Notes: generated from the sequence alone by a model not told the origin. A stretch of DNA of 64,000 nucleotides from an uncultured Thermoanaerobaculia bacterium (GCA_964423595.1 CAYRFI010000010.1:738-64737); one strand, 5' to 3'. Shown: positions 1,516-62,903, counted from the stretch's first letter. Numbers and translations are program-made.

Positions 1516-4206
1516 GTGACCGAAGGCAACAATAGCGGCCGGCAGCGAACCGCGGGTTCACCACCCGATGCCCCGACCGATTTGATCGGCTCCAGCTTCG
1601 GCCAATACCGAATCAAGGAGCTGCTTGGGGCCGGTGGGATGGGCGAGGTCTGGCGGGCCGAGGACACCCGCCTCGGTCGCGACGTGGCGCTCAAGATGCT
1701 GCCCGAGCAGGTCGCGGAGGACGCCGACCGGATGGCGCGCTTCAACCGTGAAGCCAAGGTTTTGGCGAGCCTTAACCATCCAAACATCGCGGTCCTGTAC
1801 GGACTCGAGCACATGCAGCGATCTGCACCGTCCGACCCGACGGACGCCGCTGCCGTCGGCGAGGGGGACGCGCGACCGGTCCACGTCCTGGTCATGGAAC
1901 TGATCGAGGGGGAGTGCCTCGACGAGCTCGTCGCGCGGGGAGCATTGCGTTTCGACGATGCGATGGCGATCGCCCTGCAGGTCGCCGAGGGGCTGCAAGC
2001 GGCCCACGAGTGCGGCATCGTCCACCGCGACCTCAAGCCCGCCAATATCAAGGTCCGCCCCGACGGCACGGTCAAGATCCTTGACTTCGGCCTCGCCACG
2101 ACCCGCACAAAGGAAAGTGCGGACGACAGCCAGTCGCAGTCCCCGACCATGACCCAGCGCCACACGGCGCTGGGGACGATCCTCGGCACCGTCGCCTACA
2201 TGAGCCCCGAGCAGGCCCGCGGCAGGCCGGTGGACCAGCGCGCCGACATCTGGGCGTTCGGCTGTCTTCTGTACGAGCTGCTCACGGCCGTCAAGGCATT
2301 CCGGGGAGAAACCTCGTCGGACATCATGGCCGCGGTACTCAAGGATGAGCCGGAGTGGGGCAAGCTGCCGGCTGACCTCGAACCGGTGGCTGTCCATGTG
2401 TTGCGCCGTTGCCTGACCAAGGACCCGGCGCGGCGTTTTCACCATGTCGCCGACGTGCGCATCGAGCTGGAGGAGGCGATGGCCGCGGCCGTACCGCGTC
2501 GCAAGGCGCGGCGCCGGAGGCCGGCGGCATCGTGGCTGTGGTTGATCGGGGCGACAGCTGCTGCGGTCACCACGATTGCCGTCGCGACGAGCATCCGGTC
2601 GCCTGAGACGTCGCTGCCAACCTTCCACGCGCTGAGCTTCCGTAGCGGCCGGATCGCGAGCGCTCGTTTCGCCCCGGACGGGACGACCGTGGTTTTCGGA
2701 GCGTCCACCCGGGATCGGCCGTTGGCACTGCTGTCGACGAGGACGGACAGTATCGAGTCGAGACCACTGGAACTCCCGCCGGCGGACATTCTCGGCATCT
2801 CCCGCAACGGTCACATGGCGGTGCTCCTCGACCGTCACAACGAGGGGTCGTGGGTCAGCGTCGGCACCCTGGCCGCCGCTGATCTCGCTGGAGGCGCTCC
2901 CCGCCCAATTATCGAGCGCGTAAACGACGGCGACATCTCCGACGACGGGAACCAGATGGCAGTTGCCCGTGAGGTCGGCCAAACACAGCGCCTGGAGTAT
3001 CCATTGGGACATGTGCTCTTCGAGACCCACGGCTGGATCAGCCACGTGCGCATCGCGCCCGACGGAGAACGGGTTGCCTTCCTGCACCACCCCGTCTACG
3101 GGGATGATCGTGGGCTCGTGGCCATGGTGGACGCCGACGGCACGCTTTCCGAGCTCACCGAGGAGCTGTCCGATAGTCTGCAGGGCCTCGCTTGGTCCCC
3201 GGACGGGGGCTCGATCTGGTTCTCGGCCTTCGTGTTCGGCGAGGGCGGGGTGCTCTGGAGCGTGCGCCCCGGTGCCAAGCGGGTGGAGCGGCTGCGCTCG
3301 CCCATCAGCATCCGCCTGCAGGACATTGCCACGGACGGCCGGGCGCTGATCGTCGCCGGTGATACACGAGCCGAGATCGCAGGGCTCCTCGCCGGCCAGA
3401 CCGAAGAGCGACGATATGAGGGCTGGAACGATGACTCCATCGGCGGCCTGGACGCCGACGGCACAATCTTCGCAGGCAACATGCAGGTGGCGACCGTCGA
3501 CGGCGAGTACGCGGCCTTCACGAGGCGCGCCGACGGATCGCCGCCTGTCAGGCTGGGGTACGGGGACGTGTTCGGCATGAGTCCGGACGGGAGGTGGGTG
3601 TTCACACGGAAGATGACCGGCGACAAGGGCAGGCTGACCCTGCTCCCCACCGGACCGGGCGAGCCGCGGGTCATCGAACTGGGAGGCGGCGTCCGCCCCG
3701 ACGATTCGGGGTCGGCCATGCTCACCTGCGCGCTGGACAGGCGGCGCGCGGCGTTCTTGGGCTTCGTTGATGGAGACGGACCACGGATCTTTGTGATTGA
3801 CCTGGACGACGGGACGTTGACGCCGGTCGGCCCCATTGGGACCAATGAGGCTGTCATCTCCCCGGACGGCTCGCGGGTGGCCGCGTTCGCGCCGGACGGG
3901 GTCGTCACCATCTATCCGGTTACGGAGGGCACACCGCTGACGGTGCCGGAAGTCGGCCCCGGCGAGCAGCCGGTCCAGTGGACCCGGGATGGACGCTCCC
4001 TCCTGGTGTGGGACCGCGCCTTTCCGGCACGTATTTACCGCGTCGGCATCGACGATGGCTCGCGTACGCTGGAACTCGAGATCATGCCGACGGACCCTGC
4101 CGGGGTTCTCTACGGCCAGCTCCTCCTGACCCCCGGCGGCGACCACTACGTGTACCGCTACCGCCGTGATTCCAGTACTCTCTTCCTGGTAGAGGGCATT
4201 CGCTGA
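1516..4206 (+). CDS. Ser/Thr protein kinase with transmembrane helix and C-terminal TolB/PD40-like beta-propeller
   Basis: GTG start follows a G-rich purine run. Hanks kinase motifs are present: GAGGMGEVW, VALK, HRDLKPANI, DFGLA, SPEQ. TM segment WLWLIGATAAAVTTIAVATSI. About 540 aa of tail carry repeated (A/S)PDG blade motifs. Confidence 0.9.
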   Translation: MTEGNNSGRQRTAGSPPDAPTDLIGSSFGQYRIKELLGAGGMGEVWRAEDTRLGRDVALKMLPEQVAEDADRMARFNREAKVLASLNHPNIAVLYGLEHMQRSAPSDPTDAAAVGEGDARPVHVLVMELIEGECLDELVARGALRFDDAMAIALQVAEGLQAAHECGIVHRDLKPANIKVRPDGTVKILDFGLATTRTKESADDSQSQSPTMTQRHTALGTILGTVAYMSPEQARGRPVDQRADIWAFGCLLYELLTAVKAFRGETSSDIMAAVLKDEPEWGKLPADLEPVAVHVLRRCLTKDPARRFHHVADVRIELEEAMAAAVPRRKARRRRPAASWLWLIGATAAAVTTIAVATSIRSPETSLPTFHALSFRSGRIASARFAPDGTTVVFGASTRDRPLALLSTRTDSIESRPLELPPADILGISRNGHMAVLLDRHNEGSWVSVGTLAAADLAGGAPRPIIERVNDGDISDDGNQMAVAREVGQTQRLEYPLGHVLFETHGWISHVRIAPDGERVAFLHHPVYGDDRGLVAMVDADGTLSELTEELSDSLQGLAWSPDGGSIWFSAFVFGEGGVLWSVRPGAKRVERLRSPISIRLQDIATDGRALIVAGDTRAEIAGLLAGQTEERRYEGWNDDSIGGLDADGTIFAGNMQVATVDGEYAAFTRRADGSPPVRLGYGDVFGMSPDGRWVFTRKMTGDKGRLTLLPTGPGEPRVIELGGGVRPDDSGSAMLTCALDRRRAAFLGFVDGDGPRIFVIDLDDGTLTPVGPIGTNEAVISPDGSRVAAFAPDGVVTIYPVTEGTPLTVPEVGPGEQPVQWTRDGRSLLVWDRAFPARIYRVGIDDGSRTLELEIMPTDPAGVLYGQLLLTPGGDHYVYRYRRDSSTLFLVEGIR

Positions 4207-4238
4207 ATCATTCGTGTCGGCGCCAGGCACCTTTACCC

Positions 4239-4420
4239 TAACCCGCATATCTCACCAACTTCCTGCTGTGGGCGCCGATGCACCGCACCCAGCGGTGTTT
4301 TCTCGCCTCGGGGTGCTCCACGTACTGTTGAGTACGAGTCCGCGCCCCTCAGGTCGCAAACCCCACTGGGCACGGCACCTCGTCGCCCTCGCGATGAAAC
4401 CCGGTGAGATATGCGGGCTA
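4239..4420 (+). repeat. foldback intergenic repeat, complete copy A (182 bp, MITE-like)
   Basis: Ends are TAACCCGCATATCTCACC ... GGTGAGATATGCGGGCTA (18-nt inverted termini, 1 mismatch). The arms stay complementary down to the tip hairpin CGTACT-GTTG-AGTACG (4321-4336). Lies between convergent genes. Confidence 0.9.
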
Positions 4421-4461
4421 ATGGCGCCGCTTCTCCTGGCGCCGCGCGCGAACGGTCTGTG

Positions 4462-5370
4462 TCAGCGGAGACTCAGGAGGTACTCGGAGATCGCCCGGAG
4501 GTCGTCCTCCGGGAGCTGGGCCAGGTTCATCTGGATCTTGGCCATGCCACCGCTCGAGAGCTTGTCGTAGCCGAGCGTCTCGCCGAATCGCAGCGCGAGC
4601 GTGAGATCCGCGACATCGGCATACCGCCCCCGGCCGACCAGGTCCCGAAGACTCGGGACGTGCCCCTCACCGCTCGGGTGCGGTCCGCCTTCCAGCGGGC
4701 GAGTGTTGTCGAGAATCATGAAGGCGTTGCGGGGGGTGTGGCACTCGCCGCAGTGACCCGGTCCCTGCACCAGGTACGCGCCGCGGTTCCATGCCGCGTC
4801 CCGGGCCGGGTCGGGCTCGAACGTCCGCGCCCGGAATGCGAAGCGTTTCCAAAGTCCCATGGCGCGCCTCGCGAGCCAGACCATGGGCACGTCGGCGTCG
4901 CGCTGCGAGGACCGCACCGGCGGGAAGCTCATGAGGTAGGCGCGAAGGTCGAGCAGATCTTCGATACGCATGTTGCGGTACGAGGTATAGGGAAATGCCG
5001 GAAAGTAGTGACGGTGACCCGGCGAGACGCCTTCGGTCATCGCGTCGACGAACTCCTCCGCCGTCCAGCGACCGAGTCCGGTGTCGGGGTCAGGGGTGAG
5101 ATCCCCCGGATAAATCGTCCCGAACGGCGTCGAAAAAGGCGCTCCGCCGGTCGGAAGTCCCGGGTTATCCGTCCCGGAAGGGGGGTTGTGACACGCCATA
5201 CACCCCCCGGCATGAAACAACACCTCGCCGTTGGCCAGGTCTGGGGTGTGCGTCGGCAGGGCCCGACCGCTCGGACGGGCCGCGGTCAGGACGAAGAAAA
5301 CCACGGCGACGAGCACCGCACAGAGCGCCGAAGCCGCCGCGATCCACCTCGCGCGAGACGGGTGCCTCAC
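4462..5370 (-). CDS. dihaem c-type cytochrome
   Basis: Two CxxCH motifs (CMACH, CGECH). N-terminal signal/TM AAASALCAVLVAVVFFVLTAA. The GTG start overlaps the upstream gene's stop (GTGA), suggesting translational coupling. Confidence 0.85.
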   Translation of the reverse strand: MRHPSRARWIAAASALCAVLVAVVFFVLTAARPSGRALPTHTPDLANGEVLFHAGGCMACHNPPSGTDNPGLPTGGAPFSTPFGTIYPGDLTPDPDTGLGRWTAEEFVDAMTEGVSPGHRHYFPAFPYTSYRNMRIEDLLDLRAYLMSFPPVRSSQRDADVPMVWLARRAMGLWKRFAFRARTFEPDPARDAAWNRGAYLVQGPGHCGECHTPRNAFMILDNTRPLEGGPHPSGEGHVPSLRDLVGRGRYADVADLTLALRFGETLGYDKLSSGGMAKIQMNLAQLPEDDLRAISEYLLSLR

Positions 5371-9508: not shown

Positions 9509-9542
9509 GACCGAAAGAGTGTAACGTTTCGCATCCTGGCTC

Positions 9543-9625
9543 TAGCCTGCATATCTCACCAACTATCTGCTGCGGCTAGAAATCTGGAGGTGCGCGTGTG
9601 CACCGGCCAGGGATGAATTTCCCAA
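9543..9625 (+). repeat. foldback repeat, left-arm fragment B (AGCCTGCATATC subfamily)
   Basis: TAGCCTGCATATCTCACCAACTATCTGCTGCGG... matches the left terminus/arm of copies A, C and G. Similarity decays after about 80 nt, and no matching right terminus was found. Confidence 0.7.
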
Positions 9626-11717: not shown

Positions 11718-11856
11718 CTAACCCAGCCTGCATATCTCACCAACTATTTGCTGCGACCGGAAATCTGCAGCAATCTGCGGCGTTTGCTTCCATCGGAGTG
11801 CTCGACGTACTGCAAGTACGCGCTCCGCGCCCTGCGAGGCTTGGCCGGGGCCCCCA
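11718..11856 (+). repeat. foldback repeat, truncated long-form left arm C
   Basis: CTAACCCAGCCTGCATATCTCACCAACTATTTGCTGCG... then GTGCTCGACGTACTGCAAGTACGCGCTCCGCGCCCTGCGAGGCTTGGCCGGGGCCCCCAG, nearly identical to 30551-30611 of copy G. No right arm. Confidence 0.85.
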
Positions 11857-11889
11857 GATCAGCCCTTGGGAGCGGACGCATCACGCAGT

Positions 11890-15301: not shown

Positions 15302-15506
15302 ACGTTGATCTCCCGCGGCGACCATATCAGTCGCGGGAATGCAATAGATGCCGAATCATGGGTTTTGAATACGAGACGCCATGCCCAACGGATGTGCGAT
15401 ATCTTCACGTGCCGGGTTTTGACGCCCAAAACGATACGCAGAGGTTGAAAACGCAGCGGCCCACGTGGGCGAGCACCGGTGAACGAAGAAGTGGTTGTCC
15501 ACCGAC

Positions 15507-17747
15507 ATGTCCCGGCATCCGGAGGTGCTCAGATTGACCCAGGAGGCCAGATGGACAGGAATCCAACTCGTGGACCGGGCGCCTGTACACCTCTATACTG
15601 TTGCGGTTGTGGATCCAGACAACAACCCCGTGCGGAAGGACGAGTTCTATCTCGGCGACTGGTTGATCCAGCCGAGTCTCGACCGGGTGACTCGGGGTCA
15701 CCGGACCCACACCGTTCCACCTCGTTTCATGGATCTTCTGGTTTGTCTCGCCGAGCAGCGGGGAGCCGTGGTCTCCAAGAGCCAGATTGTCGACAAGGTT
15801 TGGGCCGGCGATGTTGTGACCGACGGGGCCCTCACCCATGCGGTAGCGGTTCTTCGGCAGACGCTCGATGACGATGCCCGCGAACCGCGATACATCGAGA
15901 CGATTCCGAGGAGAGGATACCGCGTGATCGCCACCGTCCGGTCAGCCGACGAACCGCCCGAAGCGGACCCGGGGGAAGTGGCCGCGACGCACGGATGGCG
16001 CGTCCGCATCGCGCTGGTAGCGATCACGGCCGCTCTCGTGACATCGGCGGTCTGGTTCGTGTCAGTGAGAGACCGAGGAACTGCGCAACCGGTCGCAGAT
16101 GCGCCGATCCCGTCAATTATCGTTCTTCCCTTCAAAAACCTCGGTCCACCGGACCAAGAGTACTTCGCCGCCGGGATCACCGAAGAGCTGACCACCCGTC
16201 TGGCAGCGGTACGAGGCCTGACCGTCGTTTCGCAGACCAGTGCGTCGCGATACGCGAATACCGATTCAACCGTGGCCGAGATCGGAGAGGAGCTCGGGGT
16301 CGATTATCTCCTCGAGGGAAGCGTGCGGTGGGCATCGGGAGAGGATGCGGGGGAGAAAGTACGGATCACTCTCCAGCTCATCCGGGTGGAAAACGATCGA
16401 CATATTTGGGCAGAGGTCTACGATCGTGTTCTCGAAGACATCTTCACGCTGCAGTCCGAAATCGCCCAGCAGGTGGTCGAACGACTCAACGTTGAGCTGG
16501 TGGAAGCGGAGCAGCTCGCCCTCCAAGTCAGGCCCACCGCCAGTATCGAGGCGTACCAGGCCTATCTGCACGGCAGAGACTACGCCACCAGAAGAGATAC
16601 CGAACAGGACACGCTGCTCGCCGTAACGATGTTTCAGCGCGCCGTTGACCTCGATCCACAATTCGCTCTCGCCTACGCCGAGCTCGCTCAGGCGCACGCC
16701 CGCATCTACCACTTCGGTTTCGATCGCTCGGACCAGCGGTTGAGGGCTGCGCGGGAAGCTCTGGAAACCGCCCTCGAGCTCGATCCGATGTCGCCGGAGG
16801 TGCGTCTCGCCGCTGGGTACTACCACTACTGGGCCGAAATGAACTTCGAGGCAGCTTTGGAGGACTTTGCGGTTGCCGAAAAGGGACGGCCTTACGACGC
16901 CGAGGTGCTCGAAGGTGTGTCGTACATTCTTCGTCGGCAGGGGAAGCTCGAGGAGGCCCTCGCGAAGATCGAGCGAGCGTATGAGATTAGCCCTCGGGAC
17001 GCACTGATCGCGCTGGAGGTCGGGAATACGCTCCGTGGCCTCCGGCGGTACGACGAGGCCAACCGGCTTTTCGATGACGCGATCATCCTGTCCCCGGACC
17101 TGATGACAGCCTATCTGTGGAAAGCTGAGAATTATTGGCTGTGGAACGGTATGGTCAGCGATGCCGCGCAGACTTTACAAAACATGCCGAGGGTGCCGGT
17201 TTCGTATATGTTCGAGGGTCTGTACCTGCAGCAGATCTACGAGGAGGACTATGCCGGCGCATTCGCTCTGCTCTCCGAAACGGCCCTCGATGCGCACGTC
17301 ACCCAGGAGCGGTACTACCCGAAAGCTCTGCTCGAAGCAGAGGTGCATGCATTCGTGGGAGAGACCGATCAAGCTCGCGAATCATACGAGAAGGCCCGGG
17401 TCGTCCTCGAGAGGCTGGTTGCGGAACAGAAGGATGATGCGCGGTTCCACAGCTCTCTCGGCCTCGCCTATGCGGGGCTCGGTTTGAAGGCGGATGCAGT
17501 CCGGGAGGGACGATTCGCGACCGAGCTCTACCCCGTTTCGATGGACAGCTGGTCGGGAACCGATTTTCGTCGCGAGCTGGCGCGGATCTATGTCATGGTT
17601 GGCGAAAATAATCTGGCTCTCGACGAAATCGAGTTTCTGCTGGCCACTCCGAACCGATGGACATCGGTCGCACTGTTCCGTCTCGATCCGAGGTGGAATG
17701 CTCTCCGAGACAACCCGCGGTTCGAACGGCTCCTGAACGAGCGATAG
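15507..17747 (+). CDS. winged-helix (OmpR/CadC-type) DNA-binding protein with TM segment and C-terminal TPR domain
   Basis: wHTH ends with the typical YIETIPRRGYR. TM segment IALVAITAALVTSAVWFV. A TolB-N-like segment (IIVLPFKNLG) is followed by many TPR-like helices. Start uncertain (ATG 15507 vs TTG 15495). Confidence 0.85.
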   Translation: MSRHPEVLRLTQEARWTGIQLVDRAPVHLYTVAVVDPDNNPVRKDEFYLGDWLIQPSLDRVTRGHRTHTVPPRFMDLLVCLAEQRGAVVSKSQIVDKVWAGDVVTDGALTHAVAVLRQTLDDDAREPRYIETIPRRGYRVIATVRSADEPPEADPGEVAATHGWRVRIALVAITAALVTSAVWFVSVRDRGTAQPVADAPIPSIIVLPFKNLGPPDQEYFAAGITEELTTRLAAVRGLTVVSQTSASRYANTDSTVAEIGEELGVDYLLEGSVRWASGEDAGEKVRITLQLIRVENDRHIWAEVYDRVLEDIFTLQSEIAQQVVERLNVELVEAEQLALQVRPTASIEAYQAYLHGRDYATRRDTEQDTLLAVTMFQRAVDLDPQFALAYAELAQAHARIYHFGFDRSDQRLRAAREALETALELDPMSPEVRLAAGYYHYWAEMNFEAALEDFAVAEKGRPYDAEVLEGVSYILRRQGKLEEALAKIERAYEISPRDALIALEVGNTLRGLRRYDEANRLFDDAIILSPDLMTAYLWKAENYWLWNGMVSDAAQTLQNMPRVPVSYMFEGLYLQQIYEEDYAGAFALLSETALDAHVTQERYYPKALLEAEVHAFVGETDQARESYEKARVVLERLVAEQKDDARFHSSLGLAYAGLGLKADAVREGRFATELYPVSMDSWSGTDFRRELARIYVMVGENNLALDEIEFLLATPNRWTSVALFRLDPRWNALRDNPRFERLLNER

Positions 17748-17784
17748 CCGCCTGCGCGACGAAACCTGGTGAGACATGCGGGTG
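17746..17784 (+). repeat. foldback repeat, right-terminus fragment D
   Basis: GCGCGACGAAACCTGGTGAGACATGCGGGTGA matches the right arm/terminus of A and G (CTCGCGA[CT]GAAACCCGGTGAGATATGCGGGCTA). It starts at the stop codon of the upstream gene. Confidence 0.75.
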
Positions 17785-27619: not shown

Positions 27620-29209
27620 ATGGTCCAGACGCGGAGAATGGCTGCGGGTCTGATCGTCATCGTGCTGAGCTTCGCTCAGGCCGGCCTGACTCAGTCCACT
27701 CAAGGGGTGGCGAGGCGGGAGGTCAAAAAGCCGTTTGACGTGGTCGAGGCTTCGATTGCGGACATCCACGAGGCCATGCGCGAGGGAAGGCTGACGTCGC
27801 GACAGCTGGTGCAGCTCTATATCGACCGAATCGAGGCCTACGACAAGCAGGGGCCCGCCCTCAATGCCATCATCGTGGTCAACCCCAATGCCCTCAGGCG
27901 CGCGCAGGAACTCGATGAGGTCTTTGCCGAGACCGGGATGGTCGGGCCGTTGCATGGCATTCCGGTCATCGTCAAGGACAACTACGACACGGCCGATCTG
28001 CCCACAAGCGGAGGTTCCCTCTCTCTTCGGGAATCGACACCGCCGGACGACGCTTTCCAGGTACGCAAACTCCGCGAGGCAGGCGCCATCGTGCTCGCCA
28101 AGGCCAACATGGCCGAGTTTGCGTTTTCCCCGTATGAAACTGTGGGTTCTGCGCTGCCCGGACACACCCGAAACCCGTATGCCCTCAACCGGGTCCCGGC
28201 CGGCTCGAGTGGTGGAACCGCGGCTGCGGTCGCGGCGAGCTTCGGCACCGTGGGCCTCGGCACCGATACCGGCAACTCGATTCGGGGCCCCTCCTCTCAC
28301 ACCGCGCTGGTCGGGATTCGATCGACTATGGGGCTGACGAGCCGCGACGGCATCATCCCGCTTTATCTCGACCATGACATTGGAGGACCGATCGCTCGCA
28401 CGGTGGCCGATGGAGTGGCCGTTTTTGACGTCATCGTTGGTTTTGACGAAACGGATCCAGTCACCGCCGACAGCGTCGACCACCGGGCGACAAGCTACCT
28501 TGGGTATCTCGACATCAACGCGCTGCGCGGGGCGCGGCTCGGCGTGATGCGTCAGTGGTCGAACCGTGAAGGTGCTGACGCCGAGGTCCTCGAGCGATTC
28601 GACGAAGCTCTGAAAGATCTCGAACGGGCCGGAGCCGTCCTTGTCGACCCGGCGACGATTCCCGAAATGGACGCCCTTCGAGAGGACGGCCTCTGGTGCC
28701 CGCGCTTCAAATGGGATCTCAACCACTACCTGAAGAGCCTCGGCCCAAATGCGCCCTATTCGAGTCTCGAAGAGATCCTTGCCTCGGGCCAGTTCCATCC
28801 GCATATCCGCCCACGAATGGAGTACGCGCAGGCGGTCGAAGATCCTCCGGGCAGCAACCCGGCCTGCCTGCGCTCGCTTGAAAACCGTGAGCTGCTGCGC
28901 CGGGCGGTTCAACACCAGCTTGATGCGAACCGCCTCGACGCCATGATCTTCCCCACCTGGAGCAATCCGCCACGTCTCATCGGCGATCTCAATACGCCCC
29001 ACGGTGACAACAGCCAGGACCTGTCTCCCGGTACTGGGTTCCCGGCGATAACGGTTCCGATGGGCTTCGTTCGGGGGAGCCTGCCGGTCGGTCTGCAGTT
29101 CTTCGGCGACGCCTGGTCCGAGCCGCGTCTCATCGCCCTCGCTTACGCCTACGAGCAGGCCATCCATCATCGCCGGCCGCCGATGACAACGCCACCGCTC
29201 GGCCACTGA
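27620..29209 (+). CDS. amidase (amidase-signature family), secreted
   Basis: ATG follows GGGAGGG. Signal peptide. AS-family Gly/Ser-rich signature GGSSGG-like (PAGSSGGTAAAVAA) and GTDTGNSIR. Confidence 0.9.
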   Translation: MVQTRRMAAGLIVIVLSFAQAGLTQSTQGVARREVKKPFDVVEASIADIHEAMREGRLTSRQLVQLYIDRIEAYDKQGPALNAIIVVNPNALRRAQELDEVFAETGMVGPLHGIPVIVKDNYDTADLPTSGGSLSLRESTPPDDAFQVRKLREAGAIVLAKANMAEFAFSPYETVGSALPGHTRNPYALNRVPAGSSGGTAAAVAASFGTVGLGTDTGNSIRGPSSHTALVGIRSTMGLTSRDGIIPLYLDHDIGGPIARTVADGVAVFDVIVGFDETDPVTADSVDHRATSYLGYLDINALRGARLGVMRQWSNREGADAEVLERFDEALKDLERAGAVLVDPATIPEMDALREDGLWCPRFKWDLNHYLKSLGPNAPYSSLEEILASGQFHPHIRPRMEYAQAVEDPPGSNPACLRSLENRELLRRAVQHQLDANRLDAMIFPTWSNPPRLIGDLNTPHGDNSQDLSPGTGFPAITVPMGFVRGSLPVGLQFFGDAWSEPRLIALAYAYEQAIHHRRPPMTTPPLGH

Positions 29210-29374
29210 CCCGCACACCTCACCAGGTTTCGTCGCGAGGGCGGTGAGGCACCGTGCCCGGTGGGGTTCCCGACCTGAGGGGACAGTTACGTGGAGCACT
29301 CCGAGGCGAGAAGACACCGCCGGGTGCGGTGCATCGGCGCCCGCGGCAAAAAAGCTGGTGAGATCTGCGGGCTA
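29207..29374 (-). repeat. foldback intergenic repeat, complete copy E (168 bp, inverted relative to A, tip hairpin absent)
   Basis: The reverse complement aligns end to end with copy A, apart from the missing ~18-nt tip. Termini are TGACCCGCACACCTCACC ... GGTGAGATCTGCGGGCTA. It fills the whole gap between two convergent genes. Confidence 0.9.
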
Positions 29375-30367
29375 GCACCGACACCAGCGTGCGGCGCGTT
29401 GGAAGAGCTCCGTCGGCCGTCGCGAGGAGGTCCAGGTGCCGGTCAGCGGTCCGTTGCCGGGAGGGCCGGGGAAGCCTTGAACTGCGAGTCGATGGGCGTC
29501 GAGCCACAGGCGCTGCGACTCGTCGTCGGGATCGTAGGGGCGCGTGCCGCCGCCGGAAAGGGGATCGCCGAGGATCGGCAGGCCCGCGTGGGCGAGCTGG
29601 ACGCGAATCTGATGCTTGCGGCCGGTGAACGGGCGAACTCGGACGAGGACAAGACCATCTTCGACCGCCATCACCTGGACCTCACAGCGCGAGTTGGCCG
29701 GCAGCCCCGGCCGTACCTCCTGACGCCAGTACTTGTTCGGGCTGCGGGCGATGTGATGGGCGAGAGTAAAGCGCGGCGGTGGCGGATCCCGCCGCAGCTC
29801 GCAGACCGCCGTGTAATCCTTCTCGACCATCGAACACGGCTGGAAGAGGCGCGCGAAGTGCGAGCGCGTTGCCGGGTCGAGGGACAGCAGCAACACCCCC
29901 GACGTCAACCGGTCGAGGCGGTGAAGCGGCGCGATACGGTCATTGCCGGTGGCTTCGAGGAGAAGGTGAAGGAGACAGTGGCGAACCCAGCGCCCGCCGG
30001 GTGTGACCGGGAGGTTGGGTGGCTTGTCCACCACCATCAGGTGCCGATCCGACCACACCACCCGGATGTCCGTGCGCACCGGCGGCTCCCGCTCGACTTC
30101 ACGCCGGTAGTGCACCTCGAGAAGCGGTTGGTAGGGCGTCCAGGCATCGATCACCGAGTCGGTCGTCCACACCTTGCCGGCCGCGAAGCGTTCCACCCAG
30201 GTCGCGCGTGGGATCCTCGGGAAACGGCGGAGAAAGAAATCGAAGATCGTCTGCACCTCCCGCGGTGGCCGCTCGGGCAGCTTGACGGTGGAGGCGCGGG
30301 TCGCCGGCGCCTCCGGGGTTCTCCCCACAAGGGCCTCGCTCGGATGGGGATCGCCGTCATCTGCCAT
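29372..30367 (-). CDS. RluA-family pseudouridine synthase
   Basis: Catalytic motif HRLDRLTSGVLLL. Start placed at ATG 30367 (MADDGDP...); the track's 30445 start runs into a repeat terminus. The stop TAG is the terminal CTA of repeat copy E. Confidence 0.85.
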   Translation of the reverse strand: MADDGDPHPSEALVGRTPEAPATRASTVKLPERPPREVQTIFDFFLRRFPRIPRATWVERFAAGKVWTTDSVIDAWTPYQPLLEVHYRREVEREPPVRTDIRVVWSDRHLMVVDKPPNLPVTPGGRWVRHCLLHLLLEATGNDRIAPLHRLDRLTSGVLLLSLDPATRSHFARLFQPCSMVEKDYTAVCELRRDPPPPRFTLAHHIARSPNKYWRQEVRPGLPANSRCEVQVMAVEDGLVLVRVRPFTGRKHQIRVQLAHAGLPILGDPLSGGGTRPYDPDDESQRLWLDAHRLAVQGFPGPPGNGPLTGTWTSSRRPTELFQRAARWCRC

Positions 30368-30426
30368 GTCACCAACATAGCATCCGCCACCAGAGCCGCC
30401 TACGTGCTGGAGCCGCAGGTCCGCAG

Positions 30427-30453
30427 TCGACACCCGGTGAGACATGCGGGTTA
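30427..30453 (+). repeat. foldback repeat, solo right terminus F
   Basis: TCGACACCCGGTGAGACATGCGGGTTA. It lies 25 nt before the left terminus of copy G. Confidence 0.7.
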
Positions 30454-30478
30454 ATATGGCGGCGGCACGATGAAACCA

Positions 30479-31031
30479 AGCCCGCGTATCTCACCAACTT
30501 TCTGCTGCGGACGCCGATGCACCGCACCCAGCGGTGTTTTCTCGCGTCGGGGTGCTCGACGTACTTCAAGTACGCGCTCCGCGCCCTGCGAGGCTTGGCC
30601 GGGGCCCCCAGCGTCGTCCGTTGCGTGCGCCATGGTTCCGAATTCGAGGCGCCGCGACGACGGCGATGTCCTTCCATCGCCGAGGAGCGGCAACGAAGAA
30701 GACGGGCCATGCCGCCGACAACCCGGCGTTGGAAGCGAGAGGTGGCCGTTGCCGGCAATCGCCGGCGTACGGCTACTCGAGTCCGGGGTCGGGCCACAAG
30801 CCGCGGAGCGGCGCCGTAACCCTTCGGGCCGATGGGGGTCGTGGCCGATCTCTGCGTTGCTTGTCGTCGACGATGCACGGGCATCGACTTCCTCCTTGCG
30901 CCTTGATCTCGGCTCACGAGCCCCATCGGCGGACGGCACTGGGGAACCCGACCAAGCCTCTGGGTCGAAAACCTCACTGGGCACGGCACCTCGCCGCCCT
31001 CGCGACGAAACCCGGTGAGATATGCGGGCTA
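30479..31031 (+). repeat. foldback intergenic repeat, long form G (553 bp)
   Basis: Same termini (AGCCCGCGTATCTCACC ... GGTGAGATATGCGGGCTA) and the same outer arms as copy A. About 390 bp of additional internal sequence is itself an imperfect inverted repeat (for example GGCTTGGCCGGGGCCCCCAGCGTCGTCCG vs the reverse complement of CGGACGGCACTGGGGAACCCGACCAAGCC), centred near TTGCCGGCAA (~30750). Confidence 0.9.
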
Positions 31032-32128
31032 GCAGCGGCGTTGTCGGCACGATCGAGAATCTTCTCGAGAAGGCTCGAATCCCTGGATGCTCGCTCGCGG
31101 TGATCGGCCGAGACGGCCGGCTGTGGTCGCACGGCTTTGGAATCGCGGATGTCGTGAGCAAGCGTCCGACGAACGAGTCGACCGTATACCACCTGTTTTC
31201 AGGCACCAAGCTCTTTACGGCCACGGCGATCCTGCAGCTCGTCGAGGGTGGTCAGCTCGACCTCGGCACTGCGGTCACAGACTATCTGCCCCACCTGCCG
31301 CTGGCGCGCGATATCACCCTTCGCGCCCTGCTGAGCCACGCGTCGGGTCTGAGGGAAACGCTGGGAGGTTTTTTGGCCGTGTACTTCCCAGGTGAAGAAC
31401 CGCCGACCACCGAGCAGGCGCTGGCGGGCTACGATCTCCGATCGCGGGGGTCGGCGAGCGGAAAGGCCCAATACCGCAACGTCAATTACGCAATCCTCGG
31501 TGAGGTTGTCAGTCGGGTGTCCGGAATCCCGTATCGGACGTTCGTACGGCGGCGGATCCTCACGCCCTTGTCGAGCGACGCCGACTTCGACGTGTCGGAT
31601 TTCAAGCAGGATAATCTGGCAACTGGATACATGGCGCGCTGGGATCCGACGCGCGCTCTGCTTCGCTTCCTCGATCCGTTGACCTCGCGGCGCATCTACC
31701 GGGGGTGGACCAAGAACGGATTGGTGGCTCTGGAACACTACAACCTGGTGACCTCGGCGATCGGCGGTCTCGTTGGTTCCGTCTTCTCTTTTGCTCCCTT
31801 TGTCCAGTCCCAGCTGAGCGATGGGAGCCCCCTTCTCTCCCCGGAGACCATGCAGCGCATGCAGGCGTTGGTCGCCACGGGCAGGGCCGGTATCGAGTCA
31901 AGAGTCGGGGTCGGGCTCGGATGGAAGATTGGTCTGGTCGGCGATTGCCGATTCCTGAACCACGAGGGCGGTGGTGCGGGCTTCACGAGCGAGCTGCGGC
32001 TCTACCCGGACGAAGGCCTCGGAATGGTCGTGCTGATGAACAGGTCGTCGATGTCGGGCACGATGCGTGTCGCCCACAAGATTTGTGAAACGATCCGTGG
32101 AAACCGAGAGTCGTTTACTGGACGTTAG
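31022..32128 (+). CDS. serine hydrolase (beta-lactamase/PBP4*-like, class C fold)
   Basis: S-x-x-K motif FSGTKLF, Y-x-N (YRNVNY), and IPGCSLAVIGRDG near the N-terminus. The only in-frame ATG upstream of the conserved N-terminus lies inside the repeat terminus GGTGAGATATGCGGGCTA. Confidence 0.8.
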   Translation: MRASSGVVGTIENLLEKARIPGCSLAVIGRDGRLWSHGFGIADVVSKRPTNESTVYHLFSGTKLFTATAILQLVEGGQLDLGTAVTDYLPHLPLARDITLRALLSHASGLRETLGGFLAVYFPGEEPPTTEQALAGYDLRSRGSASGKAQYRNVNYAILGEVVSRVSGIPYRTFVRRRILTPLSSDADFDVSDFKQDNLATGYMARWDPTRALLRFLDPLTSRRIYRGWTKNGLVALEHYNLVTSAIGGLVGSVFSFAPFVQSQLSDGSPLLSPETMQRMQALVATGRAGIESRVGVGLGWKIGLVGDCRFLNHEGGGAGFTSELRLYPDEGLGMVVLMNRSSMSGTMRVAHKICETIRGNRESFTGR

Positions 32129-41720: not shown

Positions 41721-42168
41721 GCCTTTTCCCTTTCTCACCGCACGATAGGAGAAATCAGCACAGGGAATTCCCCGGCCGCCGGGCACTCGGGGTTGAAGTT
41801 TGGCGCGACCGCTGCGAAGGCAAGTGGTCTTGGCTCACCGCACGGCCTCGCTTTCATCCCCCTTTTGGGGGTGCCCGAACGAGCCGTGGAAGAAAACTGG
41901 TCGTCGCATCGAGCCCTGAACGGCGGCACCGACCGCCGCACGTCGAACGAGTGTTTCACGGCCGCTGTCCCTCTGTAAAGGTCGTTTACTACGGGTGATC
42001 TGCTCCCCGAATATTGGGAACTCTCATATCTCAAAACAGGCTGATTTTGACAAAGAACGCAAACGACTGAGGAAGGTTCGGCGGGGAGCCATGTTTCGCG
42101 TTGTTCCATGCATGCACCGTGCACGCGTGAGAGCCACGCGCCATACCGTGACGTCGTGAACGGGGGCA

Positions 42169-47060: not shown

Positions 47061-47220
47061 CTCGAGTTCTCCTTCGAGGCATATCTTAGCCCGCGCTTCT
47101 CACAAGGTGTCGATCGGGTACGCCGAATTGTCGCATTCCGCCGCCAGCGATGCCCGGCTATGGGAAACCAAGGATTGAGACATTCAAAACGAGTCGTACT
47201 CTGCGCTCTGGGACCGAGTG

Positions 47221-47682
47221 TCAATCCGGAGAAAACCCCCTTGCCGGCGTCAGTCGTCGGCGCAGCGCGGATCCCACCATCGCCATCGCGACCGCGAGAG
47301 CCGCATATGCGGTCACCAGTGCGCCCGCTGGAAAGGGTCGATCGACAAAGAACGCCACACCCATGATCAGGGCGGGAAGTATGGAGCCGATAGCGGTCAG
47401 CCACGCCCAGCGGCGATTGCGGCACGCGAGGCCGACGACAACACCACTGAGGGCGATGAGCGCCGGGAGGTGAAGGAGGGTCGAACGCCGGATCGAGCCG
47501 CTGAAGACGTCGATTCGCTCGTCGAGGGTCAGACCGTCCTCGGCGGCGGCGTGCGCGTCTGCACGGATCCGTATCGTTTCGGCGCCGTCGAGTTGGTTCA
47601 TCGCCACGGTCACGAGCAACGCCACGACTGCGGCGAGAAAGAGGTCGGGGACCACGGATCGGAGCCATTTCTTCATTGTCAT
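47221..47682 (-). CDS. hypothetical integral membrane protein
   Basis: 153-aa ORF with four hydrophobic helices and no recognised motif. The start is preceded by a GAGATATGCG repeat-terminus remnant. Confidence 0.5.
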   Translation of the reverse strand: MTMKKWLRSVVPDLFLAAVVALLVTVAMNQLDGAETIRIRADAHAAAEDGLTLDERIDVFSGSIRRSTLLHLPALIALSGVVVGLACRNRRWAWLTAIGSILPALIMGVAFFVDRPFPAGALVTAYAALAVAMAMVGSALRRRLTPARGFSPD

Positions 47683-47901
47683 ACCTTACGCATATCTCTA
47701 TTCGTTACTTCCAGGATTCCACACCACCGATTCGTTTCCAGTGCGGAATATCACCGTGCGCCGACCGAGCTGGCTTTTTCCGGCCTTTTTGTTATCATAA
47801 CTTCAAAGATTGAGACCTAATATCTAAAAATGAGAAAAGGCGAGCAGCGTGAAATCTGCCGACCTCCTCTCGCCGCTGCCGTTCGGAACTGGGGGGTGAA
47901 C

Positions 47902-49563: not shown

Positions 49564-49670
49564 ACTACCCGGGGTCTGTCGGTCCAACAACGGCTGGACC
49601 GCACGCTGGCTGAGCGCACGAAGATGTAGGTGTCGAGAACGCCGGCGAGGTCAGAAGGACAGTAACGATC

Positions 49671-49728
49671 AAACACCGCTGGGTGCGGCGCATCGTCGGC
49701 CGCAGTAGAGACCTGATGAATAATGCAG
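49671..49728 (-). repeat. foldback repeat, degenerate left-arm fragment I
   Basis: AAACACCGCTGGGTGCGGCGCATCG matches the reverse complement of A 4277-4301 at 24 of 25 positions. Downstream, ...CTGATGAATAATGCAG is a decayed terminus (cf. TTGGTGAGATATGCGGG). Confidence 0.6.
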
Positions 49729-55784: not shown

Positions 55785-56129
55785 GCCGTCACCTCTCTCC
55801 GTCGGATGTGGACGCCGCCTTGCGTTGGCGTCGCCATACTCGGGTAGCAGCTCGGGGCTCGATGACGTGCGCCGGTGGGAACTTCGCCTACCGGTCGCAC
55901 ACTTGGCTCCGGGCTCGGCGAGCGTAACAAGGCCGATCGCGCATATCAACATTATGAACCCGCAAGAAAACCCCTGTCGCAGAATCTGCGGAGAAGCGAG
56001 GCAGAGCGCGTGTGGTGATGGGGATGGTTACCCTGGCCGGATCGCACTCGGAAGATTTCCCCGGGATGAGAGGCGTAATGGAGGGCCTCGGCCTCCTGAA
56101 ACCGTGCCAGGTTTTGCGGAATCGATTGT

Positions 56130-62883: not shown

Positions 62884-62903
62884 TGAGATATGCGGGTTAG
62901 GGA
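62884..62903 (+). repeat. foldback repeat, solo right terminus H
   Basis: TGAGATATGCGGGTTAGGG is identical to the reverse complement of the copy A left end plus its flank (CCCTAACCCGCATATCTCA). It sits 45 nt upstream of the glycosyltransferase ATG. Confidence 0.7.

Follow-up and report, generated by a model that had tools for sequence, protein, structure and literature searches.

A dispersed 176-bp foldback repeat, very probably a non-autonomous relative of IS1380-family insertion sequences, in DNA of an uncultured Thermoanaerobaculia bacterium

Insertion sequences (ISs) of the IS1380 family are the recognised prokaryotic counterpart of the piggyBac transposons (PMC5718144), and the family has also served as an outgroup (PMC10813416). 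We analysed a 64,000-nucleotide stretch of DNA from an uncultured Thermoanaerobaculia bacterium (GCA_964423595.1 CAYRFI010000010.1:738-64737; this whole stretch is called the window below), which carries at positions 4242–4417 a 176-bp non-coding repeat, copy A, with perfect 15-nt terminal inverted repeats (TIRs). The evidence given here indicates that this repeat is very probably a non-autonomous MITE (miniature inverted-repeat transposable element) of the IS1380 family that inserts at the sequence YTAR and duplicates those 4 bp. Elements of the piggyBac type have CCC...GGG termini and a 4-bp, T-A-centred target-site duplication (TTAA), their hallmark is seamless excision, and they have non-autonomous derivatives that keep only the ends, such as human MER75 and MER85. 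The repeat resembles them in its CCC...GGG ends, its T-A-centred 4-bp duplication, its short end-only form and a transposase superfamily in which IS1380 and piggyBac are paired; it differs in that its hosts are bacterial and its target is relaxed to YTAR, with CTAG preferred.

Among bacterial repeats, ERIC/IRU, Correia (CREE), RUP and Nezha are whole-length foldback MITEs of about 100–200 bp that are non-coding, intergenic and multicopy and end in TIRs, and the present repeat is like them a small, intergenic, multicopy element that can fold as one hairpin. Correia and ERIC-type elements, however, have other termini and duplicate TA (in the manner of IS630), whereas the repeat studied here has a 4-bp YTAR duplication and IS1380 ends; those families are also restricted to a genus or family, while identical termini occur here under about nine phylum labels. 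An earlier first-pass annotation of the window had called the repeat MITE-like and, if mobile, non-autonomous, and this is borne out; the repeat is a MITE in every structural respect: it is small and non-coding, and it has TIRs, a duplication of fixed length, dispersed copies and termini that it shares with ISs. What is above the routine in it is its spread over phylum labels, its invariant 176-bp length and its covarying hairpin.

Boundaries, dispersal and target-site duplication

The left TIR of copy A, CCCGCATATCTCACC, lies at 4242–4256 (plus strand), and its perfect complement at 4403–4417 (minus strand) was read directly from the sequence. The copy is flanked by a direct 4-bp duplication, CTAA at 4238–4241 and again at 4418–4421, and it stands between convergent genes for a Ser/Thr kinase (1516–4206, plus strand) and a cytochrome c (4462–5370, minus strand). 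The first-pass annotation had delimited the repeat as 4239–4420, and direct reading agrees with the start, TAACCCGCATATCTCACC, and the end, GGTGAGATATGCGGGCTA, that it gave for this interval; the interval is nonetheless 3 nt too wide on each side, and the T-R-R prefix that it assigned to the terminus is part of the target-site duplication. Its hint that copies ending in TA, TTA or CTA might mark such a duplication was well founded, as the flanks described below show.

Two observations bear on whether the repeat is dispersed or reflects merely local duplication or a chance palindrome. A scan of the window with the CCCGCATATCTCACC 15-mer, allowing up to three mismatches, gave 13 matches where 1.9 were expected, a number that did not arise in any of 100 shuffles. 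Full-length copies were then retrieved from 185,579 reference genomes (one per GTDB species) with a pattern of both termini 120–150 nt apart, and among the matches listed there were at least 114 loci in about 40 genomes. With so many terminus matches in the window and so many loci in unrelated genomes, we give local duplication or chance no credence. The repeats form a dispersed family of whole-length foldback elements, as had been claimed, and the search for further copies that the annotation advised has extended it far beyond the window. The modal copy length is 176 bp (exactly this in 69 of 119 pattern matches, with 19 more at 175 or 177 bp), and there are smaller groups near 158–160 bp. 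In 97 aligned copies 11 of the 15 terminal columns are invariant and the other 4 are at least 90% conserved, although the retrieval pattern itself fixes these positions.

The four bases outside the termini are on both sides C/T, T, A and A/G, that is, YTAR, while positions farther out are random; the left flank is CTAG in 69 of 120 full copies, and in 68 of the 120 the same 4-mer stands on both sides. Because non-palindromic YTAR flanks recur as direct pairs (CTAA/CTAA six times and TTAG/TTAG three times) and never as inverted ones (no inverted-only pair among the YTAR-type flanks of the 120 copies, and a single CTGG/CCAG pair overall), the 4-mer is a target-site duplication that lies outside the inverted repeat. 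This duplication also bears on the idea that the repeat is of the REP/REPIN type, mobilised as a single-stranded hairpin by a RAYT (Y1/HUH) transposase. Its hairpin shape and high copy number are in keeping with that idea, and REPs are likewise abundant, hairpin-forming extragenic repeats that are retained for long in lineages; Thioalkalivibrio, moreover, is named in several papers on REPs and RAYTs. REPs, however, carry a GTAG or CGTC tag, make no target duplication and depend on a Y1 transposase, none of which holds here: the repeat has a true 4-bp duplication, its flank is YTAR rather than either tag, its hairpin is about 176 bp rather than a 20–40-bp palindrome, no Y1 transposase is found among the approximately 45 open reading frames (ORFs) of the window, and its termini match a DDE IS family. 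We therefore regard movement by a RAYT as extremely improbable.

That the element inserts as a discrete unit can be seen where one copy lies inside another (L075:5642-5817). The flanks of the inner copy are CGAG and CTTG, a decayed duplication, and when this copy and one 4-mer are deleted, the remainder aligns without gaps to an intact copy elsewhere (L033), with 90% identity over 178 nt. The pair thus constitutes a paralogous empty site.

The target is rare in the window. CTAG occurs 14 times where base composition predicts 217 (about 15-fold depletion), and all four YTAR words (CTAG, CTAA, TTAG and TTAA) are depleted about 12–16-fold. Of the CTAG sites that are left, several fall at the ends of ORFs (35731, 37338 and 39429 are examples). 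Among 175 flanks there are 35 in which a long ORF with high GC content at third codon positions ends in the TAG or TAA of the duplication, compared with 4–6 in control frames. The choice of YTAR as target, together with a duplication that restores the stop codon, accounts for the intergenic location of the copies, which the first-pass annotation had correctly noted, without any function for the host. The preference for CTAG/YTAR illustrates how, in GC-rich genomes, where such sites are rare and concentrated at stop codons, a transposon can confine itself to harmless places.

Relationship to IS1380-family insertion sequences

CC-initial ends combined with a 4-bp duplication point to IS1380, and this lead was tested on annotated plasmids, with the ISEcp1 transposase first and then with an IS1247-like one. 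An IS of 1,655 bp on Pseudomonas putida plasmid pKF715A (L123:537-2191) is bounded at both ends by CCCGCATTTCTCACAG, with CTAG next to each, and this end is identical to the MITE terminus at 13 of 15 positions. Hydrocarboniclastica and Azotobacter ISs have the CC-initial ends CCCGGATTTCTCATG, those of Skermanella and Sphingobium are CC-initial as well, and the flanks of all four are of the YTAR type (CTAG, TTAG and one CTAC). An IS1247-like copy in Phaeobacter (L119) was considered as a parent and rejected, its ends being more distant and its flanks showing no matching duplication.

An alignment of these IS1380 transposases was used to scan metagenomes, and 80 further loci (L130-L209) were obtained. 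In 70 of the 80 a terminus lies within 3 mismatches of the MITE terminus; 116 such matches were found in all, where our own calculation gives about 5 by chance, and those displayed lie at the ends of 1.63–1.76-kb units, next to YTAR-type tetranucleotides. Three of these loci (L147, L150 and L158) begin exactly with CCCGCATATCTCAC. The form of terminus shared by these ISs and the MITE is CCCG(C/G)AT(A/T)TCTCAC. The transposases of the P. putida IS and of L147 score 407 and 402 bits, respectively, against the NCBIfam model "IS1380 family transposase" (cut-off 180). The IS1380-family ISs (the P. putida IS, the 80 metagenomic loci and, more distantly, IS1247, ISPme1 and ISEcp1) thus have in common with the MITE the terminal 14–15 nt, the CC start and the 4-bp YTAR duplication (mostly CTAG), and they differ from it in being 1.6–1.75 kb long with a transposase gene, whereas the MITE is 176 bp long, lacks a transposase and has an unrelated interior. 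IS1247 itself, for which 5-bp duplications are reported (PMC3281130), has ends, CCYRCATTYCCCAAGT, that are more distant from those of the MITE.

IS5-group elements (of the IS5 family) and IS701-family elements also make 4-bp YTAR duplications, so the duplication alone is not diagnostic of IS1380, and the repeat could in principle be a MITE of one of these other DDE families. The transposase of the P. putida IS has a weak secondary match to the IS701 model (23 bits), which suggests that the families are related. The CC-initial termini, however, agree at 13–14 of 15 positions with the IS1380-family ends of dozens of ISs sampled independently (all of them of the IS1380 type), IS5 itself ends in GGAAGGTGCGAA, and the surroundings of the MITEs gave no YTAR-flanked IS with other termini. 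An origin from IS5 or IS701 relatives is on these grounds very unlikely, and assignment to the IS1380 family is strongly favoured. The first-pass annotation could place the consensus in no named family; the 15-nt terminus and 4-bp YTAR duplication now place it with the IS1380-family ISs. It had also allowed that a match of the termini to a catalogued IS would leave the element real but not novel, and by that reasoning the element is real and belongs to a known system. Having no transposase, it is a derivative or parasite of the IS1380 family rather than a strict member of it.

Several observations, in addition to the shared use of YTAR by IS5 and IS701, weigh against this assignment. No sampled IS is identical to the MITE at all 15 terminal bases on both ends (the best has 14 of 15), and inward of the terminal repeat the MITE has no similarity to the subterminal sequence of the sampled ISs, so that none of them gave rise to it by simple deletion. 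Neither the window nor the at least 114 MITE loci (about 0.8 Mb) nor related contigs yielded an autonomous IS1380 copy, and thus co-occurrence in the same genome was not seen. The flanks differ in 52 of the 120 copies, which we attribute to age. No clean orthologous empty site was found through homologues of the amidase gene next to copy E (below), because synteny in the relatives breaks at the amidase stop codon: copy E is present in all four contigs with an identical amidase, and relatives whose amidase is 78–91% identical differ downstream. Of the comparison of occupied and empty sites that the first-pass annotation had suggested, only the paralogous site was therefore obtained.

The searches for a parent were as follows. 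As the first-pass annotation had stated, the window has no transposase, integrase or Y1/RAYT gene: no Pfam family of the transposase, integrase or Y1 type was found among about 45 candidate genes, which cover 89% of the window, and tblastn with seven IS1380 transposases gave nothing below E = 0.1. A parent IS was sought in the at least 114 MITE loci as terminus pairs 0.25–4 kb apart, as YTAR-flanked inverted repeats 0.6–3 kb apart and as ORFs beside solo termini, and none was found; these searches led to nothing but adjacent MITEs and genes of ordinary kinds: a metalloprotease-like ORF (HExxH) and ORFs that by reading of their sequences resemble TatD, an aminotransferase and RNase E/G. Comparison of copy A and the terminus consensus with 72,556 plasmids by blastn produced no meaningful match, and a terminus scan of viral contigs produced none.

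Most of the 80 metagenomic ISs have a conserved leader in the first ~110 nt after their left end, in which GCATCGGGGC forms a stem with GCCCCGATGC, about 60 nt farther downstream (for example L141:1107-1216). The downstream partner contains the apparent ATG of the transposase, and the stem looks like one that would sequester the start codon and so limit translation from read-through transcripts.

Although it is of a known type of mobile DNA, the family is apparently undescribed. Rfam 15 gave no match at gathering scores and no paper describing the repeat was found, in agreement with the first-pass annotation. Searches of the literature on MITEs, CTAG targets and non-autonomous forms of IS1380, and on MITEs in Thioalkalivibrio, turned up no account of it, although an ISfinder catalogue entry may exist; searchable reviews and papers contain no mention of MITEs of IS1380, and a text search for the terminus sequence in papers gave unrelated primer matches only. 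A 2024 review of MITEs (PMC10969869) was not among the matches listed for IS1380 and MITE. With 15-nt ends and a YTAR target the element is a natural minimal substrate, and it could be used to probe whether IS1380 enzymes share the seamless cut-and-paste chemistry of piggyBac and whether the conserved hairpin interior improves mobilisation.

The hairpin and its conservation

As single-stranded DNA the copy A stretch folds with a free energy of −47.7 kcal/mol (z = −5.6), and RNAfold gives a single whole-length hairpin of 63 pairs, all of which span the midpoint; the whole-length imperfect hairpin described in the first-pass annotation is thus borne out. The 97 copies can be aligned as a single cluster, in which mean column identity is 72% and pairwise identities go down to about 50%, and every representative of the cluster folds as the same whole-length hairpin. 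A consensus of 60 pairs was built from the minimum free energy structures of the individual sequences (from a MAFFT alignment RNAalifold had retrieved no more of the hairpin than its base and its tip). In this consensus 85.6% of cells hold standard pairs, compared with 27–47% when the partners are slid by 1–3 columns; both sides have changed in 42 of the 60 pairs (505 cells, against 96–192 in the slid controls), and none of 500 shuffles reached the observed pairing values. From such compensatory substitutions we infer that the hairpin interior is kept. Singleton clusters from Opitutales, Nitrospirales and Planctomycetota have the same architecture with almost entirely different sequence.

The hairpin is asymmetric, one arm reading TIR-N4-TTCTRCTGCGG-CGCCGAT and the other TIR-N4-TTCGTCGCGAGGGCG-CGAG; its internal-loop bases are more than 90% conserved, and the tip GACGTA...TACGC is conserved as well. 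Because repeated palindrome formation or template switching would erase this asymmetry, it points to selection for both pairing and motifs. In a few sub-families that share these termini the hairpin does not extend over the whole length, and the fold is thus not strictly required for mobilisation.

These properties could also be those of a functional structured RNA, or of an RNA hairpin that hosts have co-opted as a stabiliser or terminator of mRNA 3' ends in the manner of REP or ERIC, with the transposon-like ends being secondary. Strong covariation at a fixed length of 176 bp across very divergent sequences, conserved unpaired positions, and a position that is often directly behind a stop codon and between convergent genes are what such an RNA would show. 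The pairing has no RNA-type strand signature, however, with 218 G-T/T-G cells against 304 A-C/C-A cells; the copies have no preferred orientation with respect to the gene upstream (29 versus 20, p = 0.25), and no promoter-like or terminator-like site or T-run was found around copy A. The YTAR target already accounts for the position behind stop codons, the sub-families without a full hairpin retain the termini, and Rfam gives only a chance-level match. This match, below threshold, is to the plant MIR1437 precursor (window 4236–4423, minus strand; 33.6 bits and E = 2.9e-4 over the full model length, against a gathering score of 168), and we rejected it as a generic resemblance among long, GC-rich hairpins. 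An RNA function as the primary identity of the repeat is accordingly improbable, and we return to the IS1380-type MITE.

In the mechanism that we propose from these sequence comparisons, an IS1380-type transposase would bind the MITE termini, make 4-nt staggered cuts at YTAR and paste the element in. Copies would then accumulate harmlessly just after genes, where YTAR survives mainly in stop codons and the duplication would restore the stop. Extruded as a cruciform, or snapped back in single-stranded form, the hairpin might bring the two ends together or otherwise improve mobilisation in trans, with selection acting at the level of the element; that its advantage is of this element-level kind, through juxtaposition of the ends or through a bound factor, is suggested with low confidence. 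A further, tentative possibility, which we think more doubtful than probable, is that the interior is a selected, structure-specific cis element whose conserved loops and tip have been kept across about nine phylum labels, either as an aid to a piggyBac-like IS1380 transposase acting on a non-autonomous substrate or through repeated retention by hosts as a gene-end hairpin. If it were true, the family would be a "structured MITE" lineage of long standing and not a short-lived product of deletion.

Copies in the window, distribution and neighbouring features

The window was inventoried by nhmmer with a hidden Markov model (HMM) of the repeat family (176 positions), which gave 3 complete copies (A, E and G) and about 6 truncated ones, as the first-pass annotation had counted. 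Copy A matches HMM positions 1–176 with E = 5.7e-43. Copy E (29210–29371, minus strand; HMM 1–176, E = 5.1e-24) has complete ends and is 162 bp long, the alignment showing about 15 bp missing at the hairpin tip. Its flanks are CTGA at 29206–29209, which includes the TGA stop of the amidase gene, and CTAG at 29372–29375, whose first three bases are the TAG stop of a minus-strand RluA-like gene. Copy G (30481–31028, plus strand; HMM 1–112 and 106–176), flanked by CAAG and CTAG, lies between divergent RluA-like and beta-lactamase-fold genes; it had been described as a 553-bp form at 30479–31031, and it is indeed a real copy, but one of 548 bp in total, in which a normal copy (30481–~30586 and ~30963–31028) is split by a nested 371-bp element.

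The truncated copies are a composite of the G type at 11727–11857 (plus strand; HMM 1–113, E = 1.8e-17), made of the left two-thirds of the MITE and the first 22 nt of the nested element and 83% identical to 30474–30611 (repeat family D4); a left-end fragment at 9546–~9590 (plus strand; HMM 1–40, E = 2.6e-6), preceded by CTAG at 9542–9545 and 89% identical to 11725–11770 (repeat family D5); a right-end fragment at 17748–17782 (plus strand; repeat family D2; HMM 120–176, E = 1.9e-6), directly after the TAG stop of a gene at 15495–17747; an end fragment at 30419–30450 (minus strand; HMM 1–32, E = 2.4e-4) with a TTAA flank at 30451–30454; and an internal arm fragment without a terminus at 49662–49728 (minus strand; HMM 10–68, E = 3.1e-6; inverted repeats I5 and I6). 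The weakest is a 13-nt terminus remnant, GAGATATGCGGG, at 62884–62896 (plus strand), which is followed by TTAG and has 2 mismatches in the terminus scan but an nhmmer E of only 4. Four decayed traces that had been reported at 47088–47104, 47688–47698, 55938–55950 and 42024–42032 gave no nhmmer match even at E ≤ 10, the nearest being 47498–47541 with E 6.5. The three complete copies are 75–85% identical and many others are truncated, so the family is here an old, decaying population. Exact-protein look-up of the kinase and cytochrome c that flank copy A returned no record.

A decayed MITE-like stretch, TTTCGTAGCGAGGC..., follows the amidase stop in a relative whose amidase is 80% identical (L210:3154-3240 and L211:2283-2369; nhmmer E = 2.5e-4). 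It has no recognisable termini and reflects either an old insertion at the end of the amidase gene or a site that was struck twice.

Among the matches listed, carriers fall under about nine phylum labels. The Gammaproteobacteria include the isolate Thioalkalivibrio sulfidiphilus ALJ17, Ectothiorhodospiraceae, Halieaceae, Pseudomonadales and Halofilum; the Acidobacteriota include Thermoanaerobaculia, Holophagae, Vicinamibacteria and Bryobacterales; and the other labels are Myxococcota, Gemmatimonadota, Actinomycetota, Spirochaetota, Verrucomicrobiota (Opitutales), Planctomycetota and Nitrospirota. These labels are taken from record titles and could include binning errors in metagenome-assembled genomes (MAGs), against which it can be said that several chromosome-scale records (OZ242366.1, OY760136.1, OY760226.1 and a 3.6-Mb Opitutales contig) and the cultured isolate carry the element. 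Copy A is 89% identical to copies in Acidobacteriota MAGs. Homologues of the amidase pointed to Gemmatimonadota as the source of the window, and on that footing this similarity would suggest horizontal spread. The copies in T. sulfidiphilus ALJ17 are 95–100% identical to one another (median 98%), which indicates recent activity.

Two variant arrangements were seen. Minimal derivatives of 34–55 bp (L029:837-878, L083:6969-7002 and L085:614-668) consist of hardly more than two termini back to back, with YTAR-like flanks, and are presumably internal-deletion products of the hairpin. Tandem copies with only CTGG between them are found at L057:3118-3293, where the second starts at 3298, and likewise at L046:2847 and in L059. 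The second copy has the mutated terminus CCCGGTTATCTCACC, and the occurrence of this arrangement at several loci of one Ectothiorhodospiraceae MAG suggests that the tandem dimer was itself propagated.

The 371-bp element nested in copy G (30590–30960) is non-coding and bounded by 22-nt inverted termini of a different sequence, GAGGCTTGGYCGGGNNCCCCAG, for which 3 matches were found where 0 were expected; it folds with z = −5.6. It is unrelated to the MITE family and concerns us only as part of the anatomy of copy G. Its left end recurs at 11836–11857 with the same junction as in copy G, so the composite form represented at 11727–11857 was itself once copied.

ORFs that run across MITE copies contain no Pfam family, and gene calls around the copies, both mechanical and public, are distorted. 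The beta-lactamase-fold ORF (31022–32128) is called from an ATG inside the right terminus, GAGATATGCGGG, of copy G, the RluA-like ORF call begins at an ATG within the end fragment (30445), and a 182-aa "protein" without a Pfam family is called across copy G (30470–31018; L001:9453-10001). A widespread and apparently uncatalogued family thus causes mis-annotation, and a family model would clean the intergenic annotation of many MAGs. Finally, a 29-nt inverted repeat (79% complementary, with a 35-nt spacer) that is unrelated to the MITE lies at 1331–1423, just upstream of the Ser/Thr kinase gene.

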